From: a virus
IMG/VR virus record: IMGVR_UViG_3300022925_002539
Coordinates: 37,580 to 101,579 of that record
Reading direction: 5' to 3' (one strand)
Length of the DNA: 64,000 bases
The position numbers and the translations under genes were made by a program. Below are positions 4,644-54,961 of the stretch, in pieces. A model generated the notes under the pieces. That model was not told the DNA's origin, searched no databases, and saw only the letters and a list, made by a program, of their open reading frames with translations. Position 1 is the first letter of the stretch; each line of letters begins with the position of its first letter.

Positions 4644-6074
4644 ATGATTGAAATGATTACAGCTTTAATGGCTGGCGTACTATATGGATTACTAATAGGC
4701 ATAATACCTAGTGCAGGTGCTACTACAGGTTTGGTTGCACTGTTTGGTTTTATCAGTTACTTTGTTCATGAACCATATTTAGGTGTAGTATTCTTAATGG
4801 CAGTGGTTGCTGCTAGTACCACAGGCGATAGTTTTACTTCAATATTGTTAGGAATACCAGGAGCAAACAGTGCCGCTGCTACTATGGTAGATGGCTTTCC
4901 ACTTGCACAACAAGGCAGAGCAAGTTATGCAATCAGTGCCGCCGTTACCACTTCAACAGTAAATGGTTTAATTTGGGGTTGTTTAGTGTTCTTATTATTA
5001 CCTTGGTATACAAACTTATTGATGATTATTGGTGTACCTGAACTTTGGGCATTTACTGTACTTGCACTAGCAACAGTTGGATTTATAAGTACAAAATTTT
5101 GGTTCCGTAGTTTGTGTGCAATTTGTATTGGTATATTTTTAGGCATGGTAGGAGTTAACCCAGAAACAAATGAGCCACGTTTTACTGGTAGTTGGTTTTA
5201 TTTAGAAGATGGTATACAACTTATGCCAGTAGTTGCAGGACTATTTGCTATTCCAGAATTAATTAAAGGACTGTTCAATAGAACTAAGACTGCCACTATT
5301 GTAAAAAGCGAATTAACAGAAGGTGTCAAAGAATTTTGGCGTAATCGTTGGTTAGGACTACGAGGCGGTTTTATTGGTGCTTTTATAGGTTTACTGCCTG
5401 GACTAGGAGGTGCTATGGCAGATTGGATGGCATACGGAAGTGCAGTCGCTAGTAATCCAAATGAACGTTTTGGTAACGGCAATATTAAAGGTGTTATAGG
5501 ACCAGAAGGTGCTAATAATGCACAGAAAGCAACAAGTATGATTCCAACAGTTTTATTTGGTATACCAGGTGCACCGTTTGCGGCAGTTTTAATGAGTTTG
5601 TTTATGTATCTAAATTTTGAATTAGGCACACCAGATTTAGCCTACGACACAGAATTTTTTACAAGTATGACATTTGGCTTTTTAAGTGCAACAGTTATAG
5701 TTGCAATATTGTGTATATTTTTAATAAAGCCAATTAGTTATATTACCAGTGTCCCTTACAAATATTATTTTCCTATTTTACTAGCAGTAATTGTATGGAG
5801 TAGTATGCAGTATACAGGAGGCTGGGAAGATTTTGTAATGTTAGCTGTATTTTCCTGCATAGGATTTGTTTGCAGACATTACAAATTTAGTAGACCTGCT
5901 CTACTAATAGGATTTATATTATCCGAAAAAATAGAAAAACTTTCCATACAGATGTTTGCTTTGTATGACATTGAAAGTTTAATTACAAGACCGATATTTA
6001 TGGTATTAGTTATTTTTATTATAGGTATCTTTGCATATAGTTTTATAAAGAAAGGAAAAATCGATTATGCGTAA
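4644..6074 (+). CDS. tctA: tripartite tricarboxylate transporter large permease
   Basis: polytopic membrane protein with two G(I/L)PG repeats, SILLGIPG...DGFPLAQQGRA, FGNGNIKGVIGPEGANNA. Confidence 0.93.
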   Translation: MIEMITALMAGVLYGLLIGIIPSAGATTGLVALFGFISYFVHEPYLGVVFLMAVVAASTTGDSFTSILLGIPGANSAAATMVDGFPLAQQGRASYAISAAVTTSTVNGLIWGCLVFLLLPWYTNLLMIIGVPELWAFTVLALATVGFISTKFWFRSLCAICIGIFLGMVGVNPETNEPRFTGSWFYLEDGIQLMPVVAGLFAIPELIKGLFNRTKTATIVKSELTEGVKEFWRNRWLGLRGGFIGAFIGLLPGLGGAMADWMAYGSAVASNPNERFGNGNIKGVIGPEGANNAQKATSMIPTVLFGIPGAPFAAVLMSLFMYLNFELGTPDLAYDTEFFTSMTFGFLSATVIVAILCIFLIKPISYITSVPYKYYFPILLAVIVWSSMQYTGGWEDFVMLAVFSCIGFVCRHYKFSRPALLIGFILSEKIEKLSIQMFALYDIESLITRPIFMVLVIFIIGIFAYSFIKKGKIDYA

Positions 6075-13894: not shown

Positions 13895-16168
13895 ATGAAA
13901 ACATCAAAAGAAGTTGATAAAGTTTTAAAAATTGCAACAGATATTGCATCTAAGTATGGTCATTCTTATATAAGCACTGAGCATATGTTGCTGGCTATTC
14001 TTAAAAATAATCAATTTTCAAAGTTACTATTAAAATTTGGTGTACAATTAGAAGAGATGAGTCTTGATTTAGAAAGTCACATTGTAAACCAATATGGCAA
14101 ATATACAAATAGCAATCCTGTAAAAACACAAAGTTTAGAACGTGTTTTCAACAGATCATTAACAAGTGTTCTTTTTAGTGGCAGAGATCAAGTACAAATT
14201 GTTGATATATTCGTAAGTCTAATGCAAGAGAACAGTAGTTACAGTAGTTATTTTTTAATGAAGTATAACATCGAAAGAGATGAATTTTTAGACTTTGTAA
14301 AAAAGAATGATAGAAACAGTGCAATTAGTAGACAACAGCAGCAATATTTAAATGGTATTGTAAATGAATTTTGTGAAGATTTAAACAAGGCTGCTGAAGA
14401 AAATAAACTTGATCCTGTTGTTGGCAGAGACGATGTAATAGATGATATTACACAAACATTTGCAAGACGAAATAAAAGCAATGTACTAATGGTTGGTGAT
14501 CCTGGAGTTGGTAAAACTGCAGTCGCAGAAGGACTTGCAGTAAAAATTGTAAACAAACAAGTTCCAGAATATTTGTATGACCATACTGTTTACAACCTTG
14601 ATGTAGCAAATATGTTGGCAGGTACACAGTACAGAGGACAGTTTGAAGAACGTGTAAAAGAAGTGCTTGAGGCTCTAATACAAAAAACAAAATGTATATT
14701 GTTTATAGACGAAGCACATACACTTAAAGGTGCAGGCTCTGGCGGTAATGGTGGTACAGATTTTGCAAATATGTTAAAGCCATATCTAGGAAGAGGCAAA
14801 CTTAAAGTAATTGCAAGTACTACCTGGGAAGAATATAATCAGAGTTTTGAAAAAGATCGTGCATTAATGAGACGTTTTTATCACATAACTGTTGATGAGC
14901 CTACACCTAAACTTGCAAAAGAAATACTTAAAAATAGTGCAAAGTATTATGAAGAATTTCACGGTTGCACAATTACTGCAGAAGCAATTGAATATGCAGT
15001 AGATTTAAGTGTACGTTATCTCACTGATAAAAGATTACCTGATAAAGCATTTGATATGATTGATAGTGCTAGTGCAAAACAACGTAGACTTGGTGTAAAA
15101 AATGCAATAATTGCTAAACATAATATACTTGAAGAAATTAGTAAGTATGCAAAAATACCTATTGAAAACTTAGATCAAAAAGAAATAACTGTATCTCCTG
15201 ATGCTGTTGAAAATAAAATTAAGAGCAAAGTATTTGGACAGGATACTGCAGTAGACGCAGTACTAGATAAAGTATGGATAGCAAAGGCTGGTCTAAACAA
15301 AAAAGATAAAACACTAGGTGTATTTGTGTTTACAGGTCCTACAGGAACAGGTAAGACAGAACTAGCAAAACAACTAGCAGAATCAAATGGAATGAAACTA
15401 TTACGTTATGATATGAGTGAGTATCAGGAACGACATACAGTTGCTAGATTTGTTGGTGCACCTCCTGGCTATGTTGGTTATGAAGATAGCAATTTAAGTG
15501 GTGGATTATTAATACGTGATATAGAACGTAATCCTAATAGTGTTATTCTGTTTGATGAAATCGAAAAGGCACATCCAGATGTTAGTAATGTATTACTACA
15601 ACTTATGGATGAAGGATTTGTTACAGGAAGTAATGGTAAACGTGCAGACGCAAGGAACTGTTTTATAATTTTAACTACAAATTTGGGTAGTGCAGATGCA
15701 GAAAAAAATACAATTGGATTTGGTGACTTAGAACAAACTGGTATAGAAGCGGAAGCATACAAGAACTTTTTTGCTCCTGAGTTTAGAAATAGAATAGACC
15801 AAGTTTGTACTTTTGGACCATTAAATGATTTGGCAAAACGTAAAGTAGCACTTAAATTTATACAAGAATTAGAAGCACAATTAAACGAAAAAGGATTAAT
15901 ACTAAGTGTAGATGAAGCAAGCATAGACTACATTTTAGAAAGAGGTTATGACAAACGTATGGGTGCAAGGCCTATGGCGAGAGCAGTGGATAACCTTTTA
16001 AGAAAGCCTATTGCTAAACAATTATTGGTTGACAAAAACACAAATGGCTGTAAAATTAAAATTAGAAATGTAAATAATAACTTACTAGTAAAGTTTAGGT
16101 ATACAGATGGATCATCAAAAGAAGTTGGAGGATCTGAGCAATCAGAATCGACTTCCGTTAACAACTAA
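13895..16168 (+). CDS. clpA: ClpA-type AAA+ unfoldase
   Basis: Clp N-domain, two AAA modules (GDPGVGKT, GPTGTGKT), LFDEIEKAHPD, IGF loop, no long ClpB M-domain. Confidence 0.92.
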   Translation: MKTSKEVDKVLKIATDIASKYGHSYISTEHMLLAILKNNQFSKLLLKFGVQLEEMSLDLESHIVNQYGKYTNSNPVKTQSLERVFNRSLTSVLFSGRDQVQIVDIFVSLMQENSSYSSYFLMKYNIERDEFLDFVKKNDRNSAISRQQQQYLNGIVNEFCEDLNKAAEENKLDPVVGRDDVIDDITQTFARRNKSNVLMVGDPGVGKTAVAEGLAVKIVNKQVPEYLYDHTVYNLDVANMLAGTQYRGQFEERVKEVLEALIQKTKCILFIDEAHTLKGAGSGGNGGTDFANMLKPYLGRGKLKVIASTTWEEYNQSFEKDRALMRRFYHITVDEPTPKLAKEILKNSAKYYEEFHGCTITAEAIEYAVDLSVRYLTDKRLPDKAFDMIDSASAKQRRLGVKNAIIAKHNILEEISKYAKIPIENLDQKEITVSPDAVENKIKSKVFGQDTAVDAVLDKVWIAKAGLNKKDKTLGVFVFTGPTGTGKTELAKQLAESNGMKLLRYDMSEYQERHTVARFVGAPPGYVGYEDSNLSGGLLIRDIERNPNSVILFDEIEKAHPDVSNVLLQLMDEGFVTGSNGKRADARNCFIILTTNLGSADAEKNTIGFGDLEQTGIEAEAYKNFFAPEFRNRIDQVCTFGPLNDLAKRKVALKFIQELEAQLNEKGLILSVDEASIDYILERGYDKRMGARPMARAVDNLLRKPIAKQLLVDKNTNGCKIKIRNVNNNLLVKFRYTDGSSKEVGGSEQSESTSVNN

Positions 16169-21846: not shown

Positions 21847-24188
21847 AATTAGATGAATTTGGTGTAGGAAAAATTACTGCACAAAATACAACTAAAGATG
21901 TTAAACCAGGCGAAACAGAACGTCAGGCAAAAAAACTTGGCTTAATGAATGGCAAAGCAAAGTTACTACATAAAACTGCTGCAAAGAATAGTGATCCAAA
22001 CACACTTTTTAATTTAGGAATTGCAGAAGATTATTCAAAAGATATGGATGAGAAATGGTTTAAAAATAATATTTCAAAAATTGCAAAAAAGTATAACATA
22101 GACCCAGACGTAGCACTTAAAGTATGGCGTAGTGAAGGCGGTATGAAATGGCAGAGCCAATTGAAACCTAAGACAACAAAAGTCAAAACTGCAGGTGGCA
22201 AAGAAGCAAGTTATGGTCCATTCCAATTGTATACAGGTAAAGGTGGACTTGGTAATGCTTGGGAAGAAAAATATGGCAAAAAACTTTCTACTGCAAATAG
22301 TCCGGAAGATGTATTAAGTCAAATAGATTTTGCATTGAGTACAGTTCCAAAACGTGGTTGGCAAGATTTTAAAGGTGCTGAAAGAGTAGGTATCAAACAG
22401 AATCAAGGCGTAAACATGTACAAAGATTTACCTAAACCTAAACCTACAGATTTAAAAAACAAAAGTATGTATAAAAAATTGGATAAGGTACAAACACAAC
22501 CTAGTGTTTTAGATCCTCGTCCACTAATAAAGAAAATACCAGATTTAGTTAATCCACTACCACTTGCTAGAACACTTAAAAAGCAAGGTCAAGACTTTTA
22601 CAAACAAAGTAAAAAAGAGTTAGACAACATTAGTGTAGACAAAGATAGTTTTACATACAAAAATATTGTTAAACCAGCTGGTAAAGCATATGATTACATA
22701 AGTAAAGGCTTTACAGGTTTTATGAAAGATTTAAAGAATAGTCCTGAGTATAAAGCTGCAGGTGAAAAAAATAAAAAACTATATGGACCTAAAAAAGAAA
22801 ACACAGTAAAAGAACTAAAAATACAAAAGCCAGATCCTAAAACTACACTAGGTATAAAACGTAAAGATATGCCACAGATTAAGAAAAAGGATTATGAAGA
22901 GTTTATAGAATACTTACAGAATAACGGTGCAAAGTTCCGTAAAGAAACAGTTCCTGCTAGTGAACTAAAAGCAATGCAAAGTGAATTTAGCGACAAAGGT
23001 ATTATTAAACAAATTGAAAAAAATTTAGATCAGGGTATTAATACAAAAGCAATTATTGTAAGTGAAGATGATTATGTTCTAGATGGACACCATAGATGGC
23101 TTGTTGCAAGTAATACAGGCAATGACTTAGACATTTACCGTATCAATATGCCTGCATATGAATTATATGATCTAGTAAAAGGTTTTGAAAAGACATATTA
23201 CAAAGATATGTATGACGAAACACGTGGCAGTATTGGCGTACCATTGTCCAGTGGATTAGTTGTAAGTATATTTCCACATCGTCCATTAAAAATAAAAAAA
23301 CCTACTAAAGGCAAATTGAATTACAATGAAGATTTAAACACACAACGTGGTAGACTAGAATACTTTTTAAAGCAACCTAGTATAAGTCAAGGTAGAGCAA
23401 TACATTTAGGCAAGTTACCAAAATACCACGATGGTGATGATGAACTTGCAAAATTAGTTCCAGAACGCAATGGTGTGTACGCATTGCATCCTGATGCGTG
23501 GGAAAGTACATTTTATAGTTTAACAAATAAAGACCTTAAAAAGATTACTCGTTACCAACCAGCAATTGTAAAAATACCTGAAGGTAGTATTGTTGCTGAT
23601 ATGGCAATTGCTAATCAGTTTTATAGAACAAACGATCCAGAAGAAAAAGAAAAGTTTGCAAAAGCATACAAAGACAGTATAGTGCCTTATGGTAGTGATA
23701 CTAGTCATATAAAGATGCCTGAAATTATTATGCCACGGCTAATAGAAAGCAAAATGAAAGGTGGTTCAGATTTTTATAAATTTATGGGATATAAACTTAA
23801 AGATTTAGATCCTGATAACATTAGACAACTTCCTAAAGTATTAAAAATAGATCCAGCCGTAGCAAAACCTAAACTTAAACCAAAAGTTGACCCTGAGGAT
23901 TTTGAAGAACAAATAGATGAAGATTTAAGAGATTGGTTCAAACAAAAATGGGTAAACATTGGTAAGAAGAAAAAAGGCGGTGGACATCCTGAGTGTGGCA
24001 CTAGTGGCGATAAACGTGGATATGCAAAATGCGTACCTGCTGCAAAAGCCGCCAAGATGACTAAGAAAGAAAAAGAAAGTGCAGTAAGACGTAAGCGAGC
24101 TGCACAGAATAAAAAAGGCAGAGGCGGTAAAAAGAAATCAGGTTCAGGTAAAAAGCCAATTCGTGTAAGTACAAAGGCTAAAAAATGA
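21843..24188 (+). CDS. multidomain probable internal head protein: lysozyme/transglycosylase-like, ParB-like and basic Cys modules
   Basis: KYNIDP..VWRSEGG...SYGPFQL; AIIVSEDDYVLDGHHRW; DLRDWFKQKWV..CG..KCVP. Confidence 0.7.
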   Translation: MKLDEFGVGKITAQNTTKDVKPGETERQAKKLGLMNGKAKLLHKTAAKNSDPNTLFNLGIAEDYSKDMDEKWFKNNISKIAKKYNIDPDVALKVWRSEGGMKWQSQLKPKTTKVKTAGGKEASYGPFQLYTGKGGLGNAWEEKYGKKLSTANSPEDVLSQIDFALSTVPKRGWQDFKGAERVGIKQNQGVNMYKDLPKPKPTDLKNKSMYKKLDKVQTQPSVLDPRPLIKKIPDLVNPLPLARTLKKQGQDFYKQSKKELDNISVDKDSFTYKNIVKPAGKAYDYISKGFTGFMKDLKNSPEYKAAGEKNKKLYGPKKENTVKELKIQKPDPKTTLGIKRKDMPQIKKKDYEEFIEYLQNNGAKFRKETVPASELKAMQSEFSDKGIIKQIEKNLDQGINTKAIIVSEDDYVLDGHHRWLVASNTGNDLDIYRINMPAYELYDLVKGFEKTYYKDMYDETRGSIGVPLSSGLVVSIFPHRPLKIKKPTKGKLNYNEDLNTQRGRLEYFLKQPSISQGRAIHLGKLPKYHDGDDELAKLVPERNGVYALHPDAWESTFYSLTNKDLKKITRYQPAIVKIPEGSIVADMAIANQFYRTNDPEEKEKFAKAYKDSIVPYGSDTSHIKMPEIIMPRLIESKMKGGSDFYKFMGYKLKDLDPDNIRQLPKVLKIDPAVAKPKLKPKVDPEDFEEQIDEDLRDWFKQKWVNIGKKKKGGGHPECGTSGDKRGYAKCVPAAKAAKMTKKEKESAVRRKRAAQNKKGRGGKKKSGSGKKPIRVSTKAKK

Positions 24189-25582
24189 GAATAGACCAGA
24201 TCACTGAAAAGTGGAGCCAAAAATATAAGCGAAGTATAGACTGTAGTAACCCAAAAGGTTTCTCACAGAAAGCTCACTGTGCTGGTCGTAAAAAGAAAAA
24301 GAATGAAAGTATCCGCGAATCATATGAAATAGAGTTTGTTTGTGTAAACCCTAAGTTCTGTGATGCCACTGAGCAAAAGAATCAAGATAGACTATTCCAA
24401 GCACTAAGAGCAGTACCAGGTATTATTGTATACAAGCAAGACTTTGATGAGCATAACAGTATGGCTGCTATTATTAAAGATGAAGCAGACACAGACGCAC
24501 CTAAACTAATACAAAAAATAGCACAACAACACAAAGTTGCTATTGATTTAGAAAATGATGTTAGCCAAAGTATGATGGATGATATTATCACTGGCAGACT
24601 TGAAGGACTCACAGACTATTATGATACAGATAGTTTGTCAGAAGCAAAAGCAAACGAATCTATACCAAGTCCCGATAAAATGGGTAAACCTACTTTACCA
24701 AGTTTACAAAATACAATTCAAGATCTAAACGACTTAATAAAAGACTTAGACAAAGGTAAACCACAACCTAAAGAAATAATACTTGATCCTGAAGATTACA
24801 GAGAGAAACGTAAGAAGTTTAAACAACAAGGTAAGCCTTATATGATTACTAAGGTTCAGGAAGTACAGGTTGACGAAGGTGTAAATGATCCGCACATTTT
24901 TAAAGCAGTGTTTATGGCAGGTGGTCCAGGCAGTGGCAAAAGTTTTGTAGCACAAAACATATTAGGTGGCACAGGATTACGTGCAGTAAACAGTGATGAA
25001 GTATATGAATTTTTATTGAAGCGTCAAGGTCTTTCTCTGGATCCAGACACAATTGCTTCTACCCAGGGCCAAGAAATCAGAGGTACTGCAAAAGACTTAA
25101 CTGCTAAAAGACAACAAAATTATATCGATGGCAGAATAGGATTGTTAATTGATGGTACCGGTAAAAATGTTAGTGTAATACAAGACCTAGCACAAAAATT
25201 AAAGAGCATAGGTTACAGTGTTAGCATGATATTTGTTAATACTAGTTTAGAAGTTGCACAACAAAGAAACAGACAAAGAGACAGAGTTTTGCCTGCTAAT
25301 TTAGTAGCAGACTCTTGGAATGAAGTTCAACAAAACCTTATGAAATATCAGCAAATCTTTGGTGCTGATAGATTTCATATCGTTGATAACAGTGGAGGAT
25401 TAGAAGATCTTGATAGACAAAAAAACTTTGATAAAGTATACAATGAAGTACAACGTTTTTTAAACACTCCACCTAAACATAAAAAAGCATTAGAGTGGAT
25501 TAAAAATCAAAAGGCACAGAACAATGCAAAACCAACAACCAACAGTGGAAAGTCTGATGGAGGAGTTACAAGCACTAACTGA
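24185..25582 (+). CDS. multidomain protein with zeta-toxin-like P-loop kinase domain
   Basis: FMAGGPGSGKS, VNSD, IDGTG, VAQQRNRQRDR; N-terminal KWSQKYKRSIDC..PKGFSQKAHC module. Confidence 0.75.
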   Translation: MRIDQITEKWSQKYKRSIDCSNPKGFSQKAHCAGRKKKKNESIRESYEIEFVCVNPKFCDATEQKNQDRLFQALRAVPGIIVYKQDFDEHNSMAAIIKDEADTDAPKLIQKIAQQHKVAIDLENDVSQSMMDDIITGRLEGLTDYYDTDSLSEAKANESIPSPDKMGKPTLPSLQNTIQDLNDLIKDLDKGKPQPKEIILDPEDYREKRKKFKQQGKPYMITKVQEVQVDEGVNDPHIFKAVFMAGGPGSGKSFVAQNILGGTGLRAVNSDEVYEFLLKRQGLSLDPDTIASTQGQEIRGTAKDLTAKRQQNYIDGRIGLLIDGTGKNVSVIQDLAQKLKSIGYSVSMIFVNTSLEVAQQRNRQRDRVLPANLVADSWNEVQQNLMKYQQIFGADRFHIVDNSGGLEDLDRQKNFDKVYNEVQRFLNTPPKHKKALEWIKNQKAQNNAKPTTNSGKSDGGVTSTN

Positions 25583-28601: not shown

Positions 28602-28680
28602 ACTTTGCTAAATAAAGCAACGGTAAAATAACAAGACTCAATTTTTTTTGAGCAAATTTTTTTTGACAAAAGGAAACAAA

Positions 28681-29523
28681 ATGACGCAACTAATAGAACC
28701 AAGTAAATTTACAGACACAGTAGGCCTTTTAAGGTCCTTTTTTTTGGACAAAGGATTTTTAGAAGTACATACACAAAACAGACTAAGCATACTAGCTGCA
28801 TGTGAAGATCCATTTAATGTAGCAACATACAATTACGCAGGCCAAGTATGGCCACTACCACAAACAGGCCAAATGTGGTTAGAACATGAATTATTAAGTA
28901 AGCCCGATAGTAAGGGCTTTTTTTGTGTGTCCACTAGTTACAGACAAGAGCCAAATGCTATACCAGGCAGACACGACATTATCTTTCCAATGTTTGAATT
29001 TGAAATGCCAGGAGACATAAATGACCTTAAGAAGATGGAATACGAATTATGTGAATACTTAGGCTTTCCAGCAATAACAGAAAAGACATATGCTGATTGG
29101 CAAAAATATTATGGACTTGCTAGTGATTATGAAATGACTGCTGAAGAAGAAACGAAAATGTACAACGAGTTTGGTGCCACTATGATAACAGACTTTCCAG
29201 AAATGACATCACCATTTTGGAACATGAGCAGATATCCAGGTGAAACCGAAAGTAAAAAGATTGATGTTATACTTGGTGGTATGGAAACAATAGGTAGTGC
29301 AGAACGTAGTACAGATGTAGACATGATGAGAGATACATTTCATACTATTACAGATGGTGCTTATAGTAACTTACTTTACAAACTGTTTGGCAAAGATAGA
29401 GTAGAAGCAGAACTGGAAGAGTTCTTAAAGTTTGACTTCTTTCCAAGAGTTGGTGGAGGAATAGGCATGACAAGAATGATTGCGGCTTTAGAAAAACATA
29501 ATGCACTAGCAAAGGCGGCTTAG
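28681..29523 (+). CDS. stand-alone class II aminoacyl-tRNA synthetase catalytic domain (Asp/Asn/Lys-RS type), no anticodon-binding domain
   Basis: motif 1 LRSFFLDKGFLEVHT, LPQTGQMWLE, motif 2 SYRQE..GRH..FPMFEFE, ETIGSAER, motif 3 GGGIGMTR; 280 aa from the ATG after AAGGA. Confidence 0.88.
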   Translation: MTQLIEPSKFTDTVGLLRSFFLDKGFLEVHTQNRLSILAACEDPFNVATYNYAGQVWPLPQTGQMWLEHELLSKPDSKGFFCVSTSYRQEPNAIPGRHDIIFPMFEFEMPGDINDLKKMEYELCEYLGFPAITEKTYADWQKYYGLASDYEMTAEEETKMYNEFGATMITDFPEMTSPFWNMSRYPGETESKKIDVILGGMETIGSAERSTDVDMMRDTFHTITDGAYSNLLYKLFGKDRVEAELEEFLKFDFFPRVGGGIGMTRMIAALEKHNALAKAA

Positions 29524-29530
29524 TTTATAA

Positions 29531-29631
29531 TCTGGGGTGATGAAATCGGTAGACATGCACGACCGTTTATCGTGTGTTAAATGTACTGCAATATATTTAG
29601 CGTGTAGGTTCGAGTCCTACCCCCAGAGCCA
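29531..29631 (+). tRNA. non-canonical tRNA with GUU (Asn) anticodon and 29-nt variable arm
   Basis: acceptor TCTGGGG/CCCCAGA + G + CCA; D-arm ATG/CAT with GG; CACGA-CCGTTTA-TCGTG; variable stem GTTAAATGTA/TATATTTAGC; GTAGG-TTCGAGT-CCTAC. Confidence 0.9.
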
Positions 29632-29652: not shown

Positions 29653-30717
29653 ATGTACGCAGTTTATCAACATTGGGATCCACTAGAAGTATGTGTCGTT
29701 GGCAAAGCGTATCCTCCAGAATTTTATAGTTGGATTAAAGATATAGATACACGTAAAAAGTTTGAGCAAGTAGCATTAGAAACAGAAGAAGATTTTCAAA
29801 AATTAATAAAGTTACTGGTTCAATTTGATGTTGAAGTATTACGTCCAACTATACCTGACACATTTGAAAATTGCATGGTTGATAATATATGGGTACCTCC
29901 ACCAGTTACTCCAAGAGACTATTTTATTCAAATACATGATAAATGTTGGGTACCAGTAGTTCCAAATGCTAACCATGCACATAATGCTTTCAAAAAACAA
30001 AAGCAAAAAACATGGGCTCAGTTTCAATTGCATGACCAAAAGAAGCATAATAGAAAATTAGATTTTTATAAAGACATTTTTAAAAAATGCAATGTCAAAC
30101 CTACAGACTGTAGTTATATTTCTGGATGCTTTGTAAGTAGACTTGGAAACGATTTATTTTTTGCAACACAAAGTATATATGACGACTGGACTGCAATCCA
30201 AAAAAACGTAAATGAATTATTTCCTAATACAAATAATCATATAGTTGATGCACAAGGACACGGTGATGCAGTATATTGTCCTGTTGCTCCTGGATTAATT
30301 ATTAGTATTGCTAACGAAGACTATAAAGATAGTTTTCCTAATTGGGAAGTTGTGCATTTACCTGAAAGTCACTATGCCGCACATAAAATGTTTCAAGCAA
30401 GTATGAAACTGAATGCAGGCAAATGGTATATTCCTGGCTTTGATGAAAATCCTCTTATTACAGAAACTGTAGATAGTTATATGAATGATTGGATAGGTGA
30501 AGTAAGTGAAACAGTATTTGGTGTTAACATTTTAATTATTAATCCTACAAATGTAGTTCTTGCTGAATATAATAAACAAGCAGTTGATGCGTTAACTCGT
30601 CATGGCATAACTGCACATATTTCACCTTTTAGACACAAGTATTTTTGGGACGCCGGAATACACTGTGTTACAAACGATTTAAGTAGGCGAGGTTCATGCC
30701 AACGATACCATTTTTAG
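29653..30717 (+). CDS. amidinotransferase (glycine/inosamine-phosphate type)
   Basis: WDPLEVCVVG, TPRD, HGDA, C-terminal GIHCVTNDL catalytic Cys. Confidence 0.82.
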   Translation: MYAVYQHWDPLEVCVVGKAYPPEFYSWIKDIDTRKKFEQVALETEEDFQKLIKLLVQFDVEVLRPTIPDTFENCMVDNIWVPPPVTPRDYFIQIHDKCWVPVVPNANHAHNAFKKQKQKTWAQFQLHDQKKHNRKLDFYKDIFKKCNVKPTDCSYISGCFVSRLGNDLFFATQSIYDDWTAIQKNVNELFPNTNNHIVDAQGHGDAVYCPVAPGLIISIANEDYKDSFPNWEVVHLPESHYAAHKMFQASMKLNAGKWYIPGFDENPLITETVDSYMNDWIGEVSETVFGVNILIINPTNVVLAEYNKQAVDALTRHGITAHISPFRHKYFWDAGIHCVTNDLSRRGSCQRYHF

Positions 30718-31550
30718 AATTACAAGTAAACCAAGCATGTAATCTATCCTGTACAGGATGTAGTACCTTTAGTGACCTAAAGTGGAGTGGTTATTTTACT
30801 TGGGAAGAAGGACGTAGTTGGTTAGTGCCATGGATTGATAAAGTACACTTGCCTGCTATAGGATATATGGGAGGTGAACCTTTACTCAATCCTACAATAA
30901 AAGAATGGATACGTGGTGTAAAAAAATTATTACCTGATGCTCAACAACGTTTTGTAACAAATGGTACACTAATACAAAGACACTGGGACGTTTTTCACTT
31001 ACTAAGAGACATAGGAAACAGTGTTTTTAAAATTACATATCATATAAGTACACCAGCATTGGATGAAGCGATAGATAGAATATTCCAAAAATATGAATGG
31101 AAAAAGGTTACAGAATTTGGTATTGATCGTTGGCTAGAACCAAGTACTAATTTTAGATTACAGATTAACAAACCAGATACTTTTGTTAGAGTATTCAAAA
31201 ACGATTACAAAAACATGGCACCATTTGATAGTAATCCTGTTGAGGCATTTGATGCATGTTGCCAACAAAGATGTCCTTTATTATACAAAGGAAAAATATA
31301 CAAATGCGGACATCTTGCTTACTTGCCAGAATTACTTGACAGATTTGATAGACCTAATTATGATTTATGGCAACAGGCATTAGGATATGGACATAGTCCA
31401 GATGATAATATGGATGCTTTTGCTAACAATTTTGGTAAACCACACAAAATTTGTAAAATTTGTCCTACTAGCAAAGATACGGAACAATTTGTTGCACATA
31501 AAGACAACATAAAAATAAAAAGCAAACTACCAGTTGACATAATAGTATAA
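30696..31550 (+). CDS. radical SAM protein with C-terminal Cys cluster
   Basis: CNLSCTGC, MGGEPLL, VTNG, YKC, CKIC. Confidence 0.88.
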   Translation: MPTIPFLELQVNQACNLSCTGCSTFSDLKWSGYFTWEEGRSWLVPWIDKVHLPAIGYMGGEPLLNPTIKEWIRGVKKLLPDAQQRFVTNGTLIQRHWDVFHLLRDIGNSVFKITYHISTPALDEAIDRIFQKYEWKKVTEFGIDRWLEPSTNFRLQINKPDTFVRVFKNDYKNMAPFDSNPVEAFDACCQQRCPLLYKGKIYKCGHLAYLPELLDRFDRPNYDLWQQALGYGHSPDDNMDAFANNFGKPHKICKICPTSKDTEQFVAHKDNIKIKSKLPVDIIV

Positions 31551-31562
31551 ATCACATATAAT
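31534..31562 (+). promoter_or_regulatory. sigma70 consensus promoter
   Basis: TTGACA-17 nt-TATAAT. Confidence 0.8.
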
Positions 31563-31590
31563 AGTAAAGTTATAACTAAGGAGTAATCAC

Positions 31591-31848
31591 ATGAGTGATA
31601 GAGTGTTTTCTAGCGAAGAAAAAGCAAAACTTACACAACTAATAAATGAAGGCATTACAGTAATGCAAGAAGTAGAAGACCTTCAAGAAGGTTTATCTGA
31701 TACTGTAAAAGCAATTGCAGAAGAGATGCAAATTAAACCAACTGTTCTTAAAAAAGCAATGAGGACTGCTTACAAAGCAGACTTTGATAAACACAGTGAT
31801 GAGTATAGTGAACTTGAAAATATTTTGTCTACAGTTGGCAAAATATAA
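31591..31848 (+). CDS. small helical DNA-binding protein (T4 DsbA/GapR-like)
   Basis: 85-aa coiled coil, IKPTVLKKAMRTAYK; AAGGAG SD; upstream of polymerase. Confidence 0.55.
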   Translation: MSDRVFSSEEKAKLTQLINEGITVMQEVEDLQEGLSDTVKAIAEEMQIKPTVLKKAMRTAYKADFDKHSDEYSELENILSTVGKI

Positions 31849-32418
31849 ATGCAATATAGAATTCTGTTAGTTGCATTAGAAGCAGAACTTCCTTACAAAA
31901 AAGCACCTAGCAATTACAAAGTAATATACACAGGTGTTGGAAAAGTAAATGCTTCTATTGCCACTACAAGAGCTATTATGGAAGCACATGATTTAGGATT
32001 TCATCCTCGTGTTGTGAATTATGGCACTGCGGGTAGTTGTAGAGAAGATTTATCTGGTTTACATAGAGTAACTAGATTTATACAACGTGATATGAATGCA
32101 GAACCATCTGCTCCTCGAGGCGTAACGCCGTTTGAGGCAGGGCTACCTTATTTAGAATTCGGTGCAGATAGTATTGCTAACCCGTTTACATTAGGCACAG
32201 GTGATAGTTTTGTACATACTGAAGACCCATGGCTTATAGATAATAATATAGATATTGTAGACATGGAAGGTTATGCTATAGCACAAGTTTGTAAACAGAT
32301 GAACGTTGAGCTAACCTGTATGAAATATATTACAGACTATGTAGGCACACCGCATCAGTTTGATGTTTGGGAAAAAAATGTTGCACAAGGTGTAGAGGCA
32401 GTATTGGAAGTATTATGA
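31849..32418 (+). CDS. mtnN: MTA/SAH nucleosidase-like protein (PNP/UDP family)
   Basis: GVGKVNA, NYGTAG, TGDSFV, VDMEGYAIA, KYITD. Confidence 0.85.
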   Translation: MQYRILLVALEAELPYKKAPSNYKVIYTGVGKVNASIATTRAIMEAHDLGFHPRVVNYGTAGSCREDLSGLHRVTRFIQRDMNAEPSAPRGVTPFEAGLPYLEFGADSIANPFTLGTGDSFVHTEDPWLIDNNIDIVDMEGYAIAQVCKQMNVELTCMKYITDYVGTPHQFDVWEKNVAQGVEAVLEVL

Positions 32419-37360: not shown

Positions 37361-38842
37361 ATGACTGATCTCCCAACTAACCTAACAGAACTACAAAAAG
37401 ACTATGCAGTATTTTTACCTGCTCTTAGTAGTTTCTATGTAAATGTAACAGGCAAAATAAAACATACTGCAGGCACAAATGAACCAAGTGTCCTTCCTGA
37501 ACGTATACCTAAGCCTATTAGTGCAGATGTACGAGAACTTGACTACTTAAAACCTAATGCACTCTGGCACTATAAGTGGAGTCTACATAGTGCAGGTCAT
37601 GCTAGTTTAGATATAGAAAAAGACTTACCTCGTGAATATATGTATCGTCATCGTGATAAAACAAGTAGTTTTATGCTAGGTGATAGTGGTGGATTCCAGA
37701 TTGGTAAAGGCAAGTGGCCAGGTGATTGGAAGGCAAATAGTGGATGTCCACAAGCACAAAAGAAACGTGAAAGTGTACTGAAGTGGATGGACGAATATAT
37801 GGATTATGGAATGATCCTAGATGTTCCTGCTTGGTTAAGTCGTGAACCGGAAGGTGCAAAGGCGGCTCAGATTAGTTCATATCAAGAGGCAGTAGATGGA
37901 ACTGCATTTAACAATGAATACTTTGTAAACAATCGTAATGGAAATTGTAAGTTCTTAAACGTATTACAAGGTGAAAACCATGCACAAGCCGATGATTGGT
38001 ATAATGCAATGAAAAGGTTTAGTGATCCTAAAATTTATCCTGATGCACATTTTGAAGGTTATGGTATGGGTGGACAAAATGCATGTGATGTACATCTTAT
38101 ATTAAAAAGAATAGTAACCTTAATGCACGATGGTTTACTTGAAAAAGGTAAACATGATTGGATGCATGTTTTAGGAACAGGAAAACTTGAATGGGCTGGT
38201 GTACTGACTGCTATACAACGAGGTGTCCGTAAATTATATAATGAAAATTTTACTGTAAGTTTTGACTGTGCAAGTCCTTTTCTTGCAACAAGTAATGGAC
38301 AACAATATACACATTATCGTATGCCACACAATGGCAAGTGGAAATACATGATGGAAGATGCACCTGATGATAAAAACATGAGTAACAGTATACAAAGTTA
38401 TGATGAATATTGTGAAAGTATATATGATAAATGGATACCTAGTCCTATAACTGAACTAATGAAAGTTAAGGATATTTGTGTCTATGCACCTGGTGATCTT
38501 AACAAAATTGGTAAAGAGGGTAAAACAAGTTGGGATACATTCAGTTATGCACTTCTAATGAATCATAATATGTACTTACACATACGCAGTGTACAGGAAA
38601 CAAATAGACTATATGATGAAGGTCAGTATCCTAAAGAACTAGTTGATGATAACTTTGATCGTACTGAAGTAAAAGATGTAATTGCACACTTGTTTACAAT
38701 GGATGATCGCGACAAACAAAATAAACTAATAGAAGATCATAGTCGACTATGGATGAAAGTTATAGGAAGTCGTGGTGCAACTGGTAAAAGAACAGTAAAT
38801 GCAAGTACACAATTTGCAAGTTTATTCGAGGAAGTTAGTTGA
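37361..38842 (+). CDS. dpdA: TGT-fold 7-deazaguanine transglycosylase (DpdA-like)
   Basis: GDSGGFQ, MILDVP, NVLQG, GMGG, HVLG, SFDC motifs; no CxCxxC zinc site; located in the replication module. Confidence 0.78.
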   Translation: MTDLPTNLTELQKDYAVFLPALSSFYVNVTGKIKHTAGTNEPSVLPERIPKPISADVRELDYLKPNALWHYKWSLHSAGHASLDIEKDLPREYMYRHRDKTSSFMLGDSGGFQIGKGKWPGDWKANSGCPQAQKKRESVLKWMDEYMDYGMILDVPAWLSREPEGAKAAQISSYQEAVDGTAFNNEYFVNNRNGNCKFLNVLQGENHAQADDWYNAMKRFSDPKIYPDAHFEGYGMGGQNACDVHLILKRIVTLMHDGLLEKGKHDWMHVLGTGKLEWAGVLTAIQRGVRKLYNENFTVSFDCASPFLATSNGQQYTHYRMPHNGKWKYMMEDAPDDKNMSNSIQSYDEYCESIYDKWIPSPITELMKVKDICVYAPGDLNKIGKEGKTSWDTFSYALLMNHNMYLHIRSVQETNRLYDEGQYPKELVDDNFDRTEVKDVIAHLFTMDDRDKQNKLIEDHSRLWMKVIGSRGATGKRTVNASTQFASLFEEVS

Positions 38843-47136: not shown

Positions 47137-48204
47137 ATGAAACTACTTCAACTATTGGCAGTACTTCTGTCAGTTATGTTTTTCAGTGTAGCACACGCTG
47201 GAGACAAAATCAAAGTAGGTTTTATCTACGTTGGTCCAATTGGTGACCATGGATGGACCTACAGACACGACATCGGAAGATTGGATGTCGAAAAACACTT
47301 TGGAGACAAAGTGGAAACTGTATATTTGGAAAATGTAAAATATGGTCCTGATAGTGAAAGAGCTATTAGAGCTATGGCAAAATCAGGTGCAGACATTATT
47401 TTTGCAACAAGTTTTGGTTATATGGAGCCTATGCTTAAGGTTGCTAAAGAATTTCCAAATGTAAAATTTGAACATGCTACTGGGTACAAGCAATCAAAGA
47501 ACATGGCAACTTATGGTTTAAGATTATATCAAGCAAGACACGTACAAGGTGTTATTGCTGGATTGATGACCAAAACTAATAAAATTTGTTATGTTGGAGC
47601 ATTTCCAATACCTGAAGTTATTCGTGAAATCAACACTTACTATTTAGGTGCTAAGACTGTTAATCCAGATGTTGACATTGACATTGTATGGGTAAACACA
47701 TGGTATGATCCAGGTAAAGAAGCACAGGCTGCAGACGTTATGATTGCTGAAGGTTGTGATATGGTTGCACAACACACTGATTCACCAGCACCTTTACAGA
47801 CTGCTGAAAAAGCAGGTGTACTTGGTTTTGGTCAAGCAAGTGATCAATACAAATTTGCTCCTAAGGCTCAATTAACTGCAACTATTGATAACTGGTCACC
47901 TTACTATATTAGTAAAGTACAAGCAGTAATTGATGGTAATTGGAAAACAGGTGATTACTTTGGACACATGAATGAAGACGTAGTACAAATGGCTCCGTTT
48001 ACAAACATGCCAGACAAAGTAAAAGCATTCGCACAAAAGATCAAAGATAGTATCAAGAACGGCAAATACTTTGCATTTACAGGTCCTATCAAAGATAATA
48101 CAGGAAAGATTCAGTTAAAAGCTGGAGAAATTGCTGATGATGCTCACCTCAATAGCATGATGTACTATGTTGAAGGTATTGATGCTAAAGTACCAGGAAA
48201 CTAA
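47137..48204 (+). CDS. BMP-family (PnrA-like) purine/nucleoside periplasmic binding protein
   Basis: signal peptide ending AHA, VGFIYVGPIGDHGWTYRH, ATSFGY, IPEVIR.IN, WYDPGKE, QHTDS. Confidence 0.9.
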   Translation: MKLLQLLAVLLSVMFFSVAHAGDKIKVGFIYVGPIGDHGWTYRHDIGRLDVEKHFGDKVETVYLENVKYGPDSERAIRAMAKSGADIIFATSFGYMEPMLKVAKEFPNVKFEHATGYKQSKNMATYGLRLYQARHVQGVIAGLMTKTNKICYVGAFPIPEVIREINTYYLGAKTVNPDVDIDIVWVNTWYDPGKEAQAADVMIAEGCDMVAQHTDSPAPLQTAEKAGVLGFGQASDQYKFAPKAQLTATIDNWSPYYISKVQAVIDGNWKTGDYFGHMNEDVVQMAPFTNMPDKVKAFAQKIKDSIKNGKYFAFTGPIKDNTGKIQLKAGEIADDAHLNSMMYYVEGIDAKVPGN

Positions 48205-54251: not shown

Positions 54252-54440
54252 ATGGAAAATAATAATATAGAAAAAATACTTGATAAACTAGAAATAATTC
54301 AATTACGTCTAGATAAAGTAGAACTCCAACAAAAGGAATTACTCAATAAATTTGGAGCTCATATAGATTTTATAAATGAAACATATGAAGGGTTACGTAA
54401 TCCTATCCAAGCAGCAAAAAGACTTTTAGGTAAAAAATGA
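54252..54440 (+). CDS. small coiled-coil hypothetical protein
   Basis: 62-aa ORF with GGGG SD. Confidence 0.6.
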   Translation: MENNNIEKILDKLEIIQLRLDKVELQQKELLNKFGAHIDFINETYEGLRNPIQAAKRLLGKK

Positions 54441-54961
54441 TTAAAGAATACATAAAGAGTTACAAAGACTTTCCTGTAAAAGGGGTAGATTTTAAATGTA
54501 CTGCTAGTTTGTGTGCAAGCGAAAAAGGGTTTGCTAGAACAAACAACTTTATATATCAAAATTTACTAAAGTATATGCCTGTAGATAAGATTATAGGATT
54601 AGATGCAAGGGGTTTTATATTTGCAAGTGTGCTATGTCATAGAACTAGAACACCTTTAGTATTAGCTCGTAAACAAGGCAAGCTACCAGGAAGTTTAATT
54701 AGTAAAACATTTGAATTAGAGTATGGCACTGCTACAATGGAAATACAAAGCGATAGTATTAATAGAGGCGACAGAGTTATAATTATAGATGACTTAATGG
54801 CAACAGGTGGCACTGCTCAGGCAGTAATAGATATGGTATATGAGTTGCATGCCACGCCTGTAGCAGTTGCATGTGCAATGGATCTAAGTTTTTTAGGCGG
54901 AAGTAAGAAAATTCGAGAACAAGGAATAGATTTTTATGGAGCAGTCGAGTACCAAGGATAG
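54437..54961 (+). CDS. apt: adenine phosphoribosyltransferase
   Basis: DFPVKGVDF, GLDARGF, RKQGKLPG, LEYG, IIDDLMATGGT. Confidence 0.92.
   Translation: MIKEYIKSYKDFPVKGVDFKCTASLCASEKGFARTNNFIYQNLLKYMPVDKIIGLDARGFIFASVLCHRTRTPLVLARKQGKLPGSLISKTFELEYGTATMEIQSDSINRGDRVIIIDDLMATGGTAQAVIDMVYELHATPVAVACAMDLSFLGGSKKIREQGIDFYGAVEYQG

Follow-up and report, generated by a model that had tools for sequence, protein, structure and literature searches.

A gene for a truncated aminoacyl-tRNA synthetase lying directly ahead of a tRNA gene raises the question of whether the two form a private charging pair for phage translation or serve some other purpose. We analyzed such an arrangement in a 64,000-nt window of IMG/VR record IMGVR_UViG_3300022925_002539 (positions 37,580 to 101,579 of that record; coordinates below are those of the window). 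The virus record is 101.6 kb long, with a completeness estimate of 29% (CheckV), and is that of a large marine phage that encodes a family B DNA polymerase along with numerous auxiliary genes. The two genes form a module on the plus strand. The open reading frame extends from an ATG at 28681 to a TAG stop codon ending at 29523 and encodes 280 amino acids; reading the sequence, we noted a Shine-Dalgarno-like AGGA (28671 to 28674) 6 nt upstream of the ATG. We preferred this start over a TTG at 28648 because homologs begin at the same MTQLI residues. The tRNA gene (29531 to 29631) follows 7 nt after the stop codon. Scans for consensus promoters and terminators around the locus gave chance-level results only, and a megablast search with a 6-kb region against phage records returned no match. 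In four salt-marsh metatranscriptome studies, RNA-library contigs carried the identical locus sequence and spanned the end of the reading frame, the tRNA, and the next gene, although carry-over of DNA into these libraries is possible.

The protein is a class IIb catalytic core with motifs 1-3; it starts at that core and has no OB-fold. Its sole domain is Pfam tRNA-synt_2 (PF00152, class II D/K/N), with residues 14-274 aligned to positions 29-296 of the 308-position profile (E 5e-17), and PHROGs places it in phrog_29758, a group with no function assigned there (E 1.5e-130). An AF2 model computed from a 40-sequence alignment had a pLDDT of 94.6, and in Foldseek superpositions it fell on the catalytic domain of 430-500 aa AsnRS and AspRS proteins, with TMq values of up to 0.78. 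Since the superposition covers only the catalytic domains of these enzymes, the N-terminal OB-fold is absent. An earlier note, made from the letters of the sequence and a list of its reading frames, had described just such a core followed at 7 nt by a tRNA with an asparagine anticodon, and both descriptions were borne out.

Scores against the NCBIfam equivalogs for AspRS, AsnRS, LysRS, and EpmA were all far under the cut-offs; the canonical AsnRS model (TIGR00457) gave 20.3 bits where its cut-off is 342.6, and the protein lacks both the OB-fold and the full length of that enzyme. We rejected identity with the EF-P lysine ligase EpmA/PoxA (NF006828, 12 bits against a cut-off of 264), and there was no Pfam match to AsnA. 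When a profile of the enzyme family was compared with the PDB, AsnRS was the best match (2XTI, 4e-14, 55.4 bits), followed by archaeal AspRS (1.6e-10), the archaeal AsnRS-like asparagine synthetase AS-AR (3P8T, 5e-5, 25.6 bits), and EpmA (6e-5). The pocket motif QTGQMWLE aligns with QSSQLYLE of AsnRS and not with QSPQLYKQ of AspRS, the lysine of which is missing. This motif, together with SYRxE..GRH, ETIGSAERS, and GGGIGxTR, is kept in all clades, including the ATP-binding and motif 2 and 3 residues, and the active-site motifs are alike in clades with and without a linked tRNA. The enzyme is acidic (pI 4.7). Comparing the motif-2 loop and basic residues of the tRNA-linked and tRNA-less clades, we saw no sign of a gained RNA-binding surface; basic residues are in fact fewer in the tRNA-linked clade.

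The tRNA is real, functional, and constrained. It scored 41.6 bits against Rfam RF00005 (gathering score 29, E 5e-7) and 116.3 bits against a covariance model of its own family, while ARAGORN failed to call the window copy. The 101-nt molecule has a 7-bp acceptor stem that begins with U1-A72, a 3-bp D-stem, a tRNA-Leu-like D-loop of 11 nt, G73, and an encoded CCA. Its anticodon loop, CCGUUUA (29563 to 29569), holds the anticodon GUU at 29565-29567 between the non-canonical C33 and U37, and its 29-nt variable region (29575 to 29603) folds into a 10-bp stem closed by a CUGCAA loop, with covariation at the base of the arm. In an alignment of 50 distinct copies from related loci, standard pairing was found in 99.8% of cells and compensatory double changes in 18 of 23 pairs, so that the proposed covariation check came out in favor of the tRNA; the observed pairing was not approached in any of 500 shuffles or at any slid register. 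GUU, G73, and the first A/U pair did not vary in these copies, and the other six acceptor pairs all covaried. The type II body is Leu-like, as confirmed by the scores of 55-68 bits that the covariance model gives to phage tRNA-Leu genes.

The odd anticodon loop and oversized arm to which the earlier note had drawn attention are both present, although they do not have the same standing. Position 33 is U in relatives except for C in the window lineage and G in one other, so C33 is a peculiarity of this lineage. U37 and the long arm belong to the family as a whole: most copies have U at position 37 and some have A or C, and relatives have variable regions of 13 to 37 nt. Where the arm is long, in the window copy (29575-29603) and among its relatives, it retains a GCAA-containing loop (UGCAAU, CGCAAA, GGCAAA), and a clade with A1-U72 instead carries the loop UGGGAG; the loop may be a recognition or tertiary-contact element. 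Compared with bacterial tRNA-Asn, the molecule has the invariant GUU and G73, but its body is not of type I, its variable loop is not short, and the A37 that serves as the t6A site is missing. The anticodon is invariant even though the enzyme has no anticodon reader, and the selector must therefore be something else, either a host enzyme or the ribosome.

To what extent are the two genes bound to each other? The tRNA was present at 78 of the 80 closest enzyme loci in IMG/VR, mostly 4-11 nt past the stop codon. Among 80 more diverse viral enzyme loci, it was present at only 14 and absent at 66; the 14 include the clade with A1-U72, in which the gap is 250-270 nt. On the protein tree only 4 changes explain the tRNA trait, and one clade of 42 rows is without it. 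Three complete phage genomes of 290-318 kb from the tRNA-less clade had no such tRNA anywhere, and huge phages of 484 kb and 735 kb had no linked copy. For the reverse search we used a DNA pattern built from the tRNA alone. The enzyme lay directly upstream on the same strand at 77 of 79 pattern loci and the other two were cut by the contig end, so the tRNA occurred without the enzyme at 0 of 77 testable loci. It usually lies 4-17 nt behind the enzyme and never in a tRNA cluster, and the pair stays together in differing gene neighborhoods, as in P-SSM7 compared with P-SSM2 and P-SSM5. The linkage is thus strict among close relatives and in the reverse direction, but the majority of the more distant homologs, including those of complete jumbo-phage genomes and of 355 cellular genomes, do without the tRNA. 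The tRNA depends on the enzyme and not vice versa. A tRNA that is never alone, beside an enzyme that is often without it, is the pattern expected of an enzyme accessory.

Searches with single distant family proteins as queries gave no loci in viral contigs. Three tRNA-less family members lie on IMG/VR contigs binned as giant-virus MAGs (GVMAG); the enzyme family may also occur in Nucleocytoviricota, or these contigs may be mis-binned jumbo phages.

The cellular members of the family point to a function outside translation. They occur in 355 species genomes, among them DPANN, CPR, Dependentiae, Coxiellaceae-like Gammaproteobacteria, Kapabacteria, Chloroherpeton, and others. In eight proteins the core is fused to PyrD, and these fusions share 53-55% identity with the window protein across 95-99% of its length; a fusion of the core to PyrF also exists. 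The 146 immediate neighbors at 80 cellular loci were led in Pfam by Pribosyltran (18), DHO_dh (8), Dus (8), and OMPdecase (4), making PyrE, PyrD, and PyrF the commonest cellular neighbors of the family. In eleven of 25 family-bearing genomes PyrD and PyrF were strong, yet pyrB and both types of pyrC were missing, whereas pyrB and PyrD were found together in 14 of 14 control genomes. We did not find carB in 9 of the 11, which is weak evidence because the same search also missed carB in seven genomes with clear pyrB and pyrC. Canonical pyrB and pyrC stood alongside the family in 7 of the 25 genomes. From the fusions, the neighbors, and the phyletic pattern it follows that the family is not a housekeeping AsnRS, and, as far as gene associations can tell, it most plausibly feeds PyrD. 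The window protein shares the motifs of this PyrD/E/F-associated, AsnRS-like family.

We also recorded how these genomes obtain asparagine. Canonical AsnRS was found in only 10 of the 25 family-bearing genomes, and the rest have GatB. AsnB was present in 15 of 25, including some that have no AsnRS to use free asparagine; eight genomes combine an AsnB-type asparagine synthetase and GatB without a canonical AsnRS. Free asparagine with no obvious translational use in these eight would fit an asparagine-consuming enzyme, although AsnB paralogs with other roles are possible.

The enzyme gene adjoins neither PyrD nor PyrF in phages, and most carrier phages encode neither; pyrE is carried by P-SSM2 and P-SSM7, both of which bear the module. 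In the window the enzyme gene is flanked by a gene for an unknown protein and by an amidinotransferase-like gene, not by late pyrimidine genes, and no PyrD was found in the whole 101-kb record. A phosphoribosyltransferase encoded at 54437-54961 weakly resembles PyrE.

Several other genes of the window deserve mention. Directly 3' of the tRNA (29653-32418) lie an amidinotransferase-like gene, a radical SAM gene, and an MTA/SAH-nucleosidase-like gene, and the C-terminal 65 aa of the first product resemble StrB1, HsvA, AGAT, and SxtG. The three may form a small-molecule or nucleotide tailoring cluster, which is not kept beside the module in other phages. Besides the phosphoribosyltransferase, the products of unusual auxiliary genes include a TctA tricarboxylate-transporter membrane subunit (4644-6074) and a PnrA/Bmp-type nucleoside-binding ABC substrate-binding protein (47137-48204). 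We also noted a 757-aa Clp/Lon-like AAA+ protein annotated as an ATP-dependent protease (phrog_4871; 13895-16168), and a zeta-toxin/polynucleotide-kinase-like P-loop domain in a 465-aa protein (24185-25582). An ordinary tRNA-Arg(ACG) at 1430-1506, the sole tRNA called by ARAGORN in the window, is also present in related phages.

Taken as a whole, the comparative data suggest that the module is probably a metabolic enzyme with a tRNA helper of its own and not a private translation pair. The explanation that we tentatively place first, with reserve, is that the enzyme is an undescribed one that forms dihydroorotate and uses the tRNA as an asparaginyl carrier. Dihydroorotate is, in its structure, asparagine with a carbonyl bridge between its two nitrogens, and the formation of Asn-AMP is the ordinary first step of AsnRS. 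The enzyme, adenylate-forming and derived from AsnRS, would probably act in de novo pyrimidine synthesis, making dihydroorotate for PyrD and sidestepping carbamoyl-phosphate synthetase, aspartate transcarbamoylase, and dihydroorotase. We infer a possible course from the chemistry, and the reaction is our own proposal: asparagine and ATP would give Asn-AMP, the alpha-amine would take up CO2 to form an N-carboxyanhydride, and the side-chain amide nitrogen would then attack the new carbonyl, closing the dihydroorotate ring and freeing the alpha-carboxylate.

The part proposed for the tRNA in this scheme is that of a carrier that would bring the asparaginyl group to the enzyme as a pre-activated ester, and not that of a general decoder. 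The ester of Asn-tRNA would be activated much like Asn-AMP, and an AsnRS core would be expected to bind Asn-tRNA, its usual product. Host enzymes would build asparagine on the phage tRNA as a platform, an arrangement that would be useful where hosts make asparagine only on tRNA. A carrier role would explain why the tRNA is never alone, and it would explain the clades without it, whose hosts may have free asparagine. Anticodon and G73 are identity elements for AsnRS and the non-discriminating AspRS (ND-AspRS), U1-A72 is one for GatCAB, and t6A37 is an antideterminant against AspRS (PMC9976931, PMC1635274). The phage tRNA fits the Asx charging set (GUU, G73) and, in the main clade only, the GatCAB set (U1-A72); having no A37, it has no t6A. 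In its most specific form the proposal would have host ND-AspRS and GatCAB make asparagine on tRNA(GUU) and the phage enzyme turn the tRNA-bound or adenylated asparaginyl group and CO2 into dihydroorotate, replacing CarAB, PyrB, and PyrC by one enzyme and one RNA. We regard this full version as doubtful.

Several observations stand against a carrier. The Leu-like 11-nt D-loop and the long arm may make the tRNA a poor substrate for GatCAB or AspRS, and the second clade has A1-U72. The tRNA-less clades, with the same active-site motifs, show that the enzyme works without this tRNA; the enzyme is acidic, and the tRNA-linked clade has gained no basic residues. That the phage genes do not adjoin PyrD or PyrF, which most carrier phages do not encode, and that 7 of 25 cellular genomes keep canonical pyrB and pyrC, likewise weighs against a dihydroorotate-forming role.

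An alternative that retains a role in translation is the one put forward in the earlier note, that the OB-less enzyme charges tRNA(GUU) with asparagine through the acceptor end and variable arm; the tRNA would then decode AAY codons for the phage. In favor of this are the AsnRS-like pocket with intact adenylation motifs, a tRNA never found without the enzyme, and the conservation of GUU, G73, and CCA. Being of class II, the enzyme would meet the tRNA on the side of the long variable arm, for which the missing OB-fold and hinge would leave room. A supply of Asn-tRNA for translation is nevertheless at odds with the fusions, neighbors, and phyletic pattern, which indicate pyrimidine synthesis instead. 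Most clades, complete genomes among them, have the same active site and no tRNA; a tRNA that decodes ANN codons would typically have a purine, not U, at position 37; and the anticodon is invariant before an enzyme that cannot read it. We consider a charging pair for translation unlikely but still a serious competitor. Of the co-evolved pair that had been suggested, the association of enzyme and tRNA and the conservation of the tRNA hold, and the expectation that homologs would be linked to such tRNAs fails for a large part of the family.

The two genes might also have independent functions, the enzyme being metabolic and the tRNA an ordinary phage tRNA-Asn that is charged by the host, with adjacency arising from co-transcription or hitch-hiking. 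Phages often carry tRNAs, the invariance of GUU fits decoding, and the RNA-library contigs bridge the reading frame, the tRNA, and the next gene. In a variant of this explanation, the anticodon loop has perhaps been altered to evade host anticodon nucleases, and anticodon-loop changes that evade tRNA-targeting defenses have been published (PMC10264068). Independence is hard to reconcile with a tRNA that follows the enzyme gene in the same orientation at every one of the 77 testable loci, in varied neighborhoods and never alone or clustered, and it leaves the Leu-like body unexplained. We judge it improbable.

A third alternative is an asparagine synthetase resembling AsnA or AS-AR, which would convert aspartate, ammonia, and ATP into free asparagine in the manner of the truncated AsnRS paralog of archaea. 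An OB-less paralog of AsnRS/AspRS that acts as an asparagine synthetase provides a precedent (PMC9437257), and a tRNA-Asn lies beside the gene. We hold this very unlikely, since AS-AR is a far weaker profile match than AsnRS and Pfam detects no AsnA, the genomic context is PyrD, PyrE, and PyrF and not asparagine metabolism, and AsnB is already present in most of the family-bearing genomes inspected. That the core acts like GluQRS (YadB), a truncated synthetase aminoacylating an anticodon-loop nucleoside (G34 or Q34) of the tRNA that accompanies it, is hardly credible: an aaRS paralog without an anticodon domain does modify Q34 of tRNA-Asp (PMC9437257) and G34-U35-U36 is invariant here, but neither the tRNA-less clades nor the pyrimidine fusions would be explained.

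The dihydroorotate-forming enzyme with a tRNA carrier, our leading explanation, would have consequences well beyond this phage. Our literature search, which was not exhaustive, found nothing on the enzyme-tRNA pair or on an AsnRS-like pyrimidine enzyme; the module is annotated in cyanophage genomes, and we found no analysis of it in the literature searched. If dihydroorotate is made, cellular lineages in their hundreds (CPR, DPANN, Coxiellaceae-like and other Gammaproteobacteria, Dependentiae), together with highly abundant phages of the ocean, would enter pyrimidine synthesis by an undescribed route, with more than 8000 protein clusters at 90% identity. Should the tRNA serve as substrate or carrier, it would be a new addition to the tRNAs drawn into metabolism, and the natural enzyme-tRNA pair, with its unusual recognition rules, would be of interest for the engineering of orthogonal pairs. 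Either way, a testable function is offered for the "tRNA ligase" and "tRNA-Asn" of the cultured cyanophages P-SSM2, P-SSM5, and P-SSM7.

Among known systems, the class IIb domain of AsnRS (2XTI/2XGT, 8TC7, 1X54) is the closest, sharing the fold, motifs 2 and 3, and the Q..Q..LE pocket, and is the best match by both profile and structure. The phage enzyme differs in lacking the OB-fold, in having family motifs such as ILAACEDP, and in belonging to a family whose context is pyrimidine synthesis and not translation. AS-AR and AsnA, whose chemistry is ATP-dependent amide formation, are likewise stand-alone class II cores of about 290 aa that derive from Asx-tRNA synthetases and lack a tRNA-anticodon domain. 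Our family is less similar to them than to AsnRS, occurs in fusion with or next to PyrD, PyrE, and PyrF, and in phages is coupled to a dedicated tRNA. GluQRS (YadB), another aaRS core cut down to the point of having no anticodon-binding domain, still acts on one particular tRNA, but it is a class I, Glu-specific enzyme with no captive tRNA gene and no link to pyrimidines.

On the RNA side, the phage tRNA keeps published determinants of the ND-AspRS and GatCAB pathway, namely GUU and G73 and, for the main clade, U1-A72 (PMC1635274, PMC9976931). In contrast to the tRNA-Asn of that pathway, the phage molecule is of type II, with an 11-nt D-loop, U37, and a long arm, and is joined to an AsnRS-like gene. 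The nearest parallel to the module as a whole is in the Prochlorococcus phages P-SSM2, P-SSM5, and P-SSM7, in which the "tRNA ligase" gene (T4-GC 194) had been annotated and listed in a table without analysis (PMC3037559). Their tRNAs are 85-89 nt long and, unlike that of the window, have no encoded CCA, but the module is the same, with 66-68% protein identity and a gap of 8-9 nt between enzyme and tRNA.
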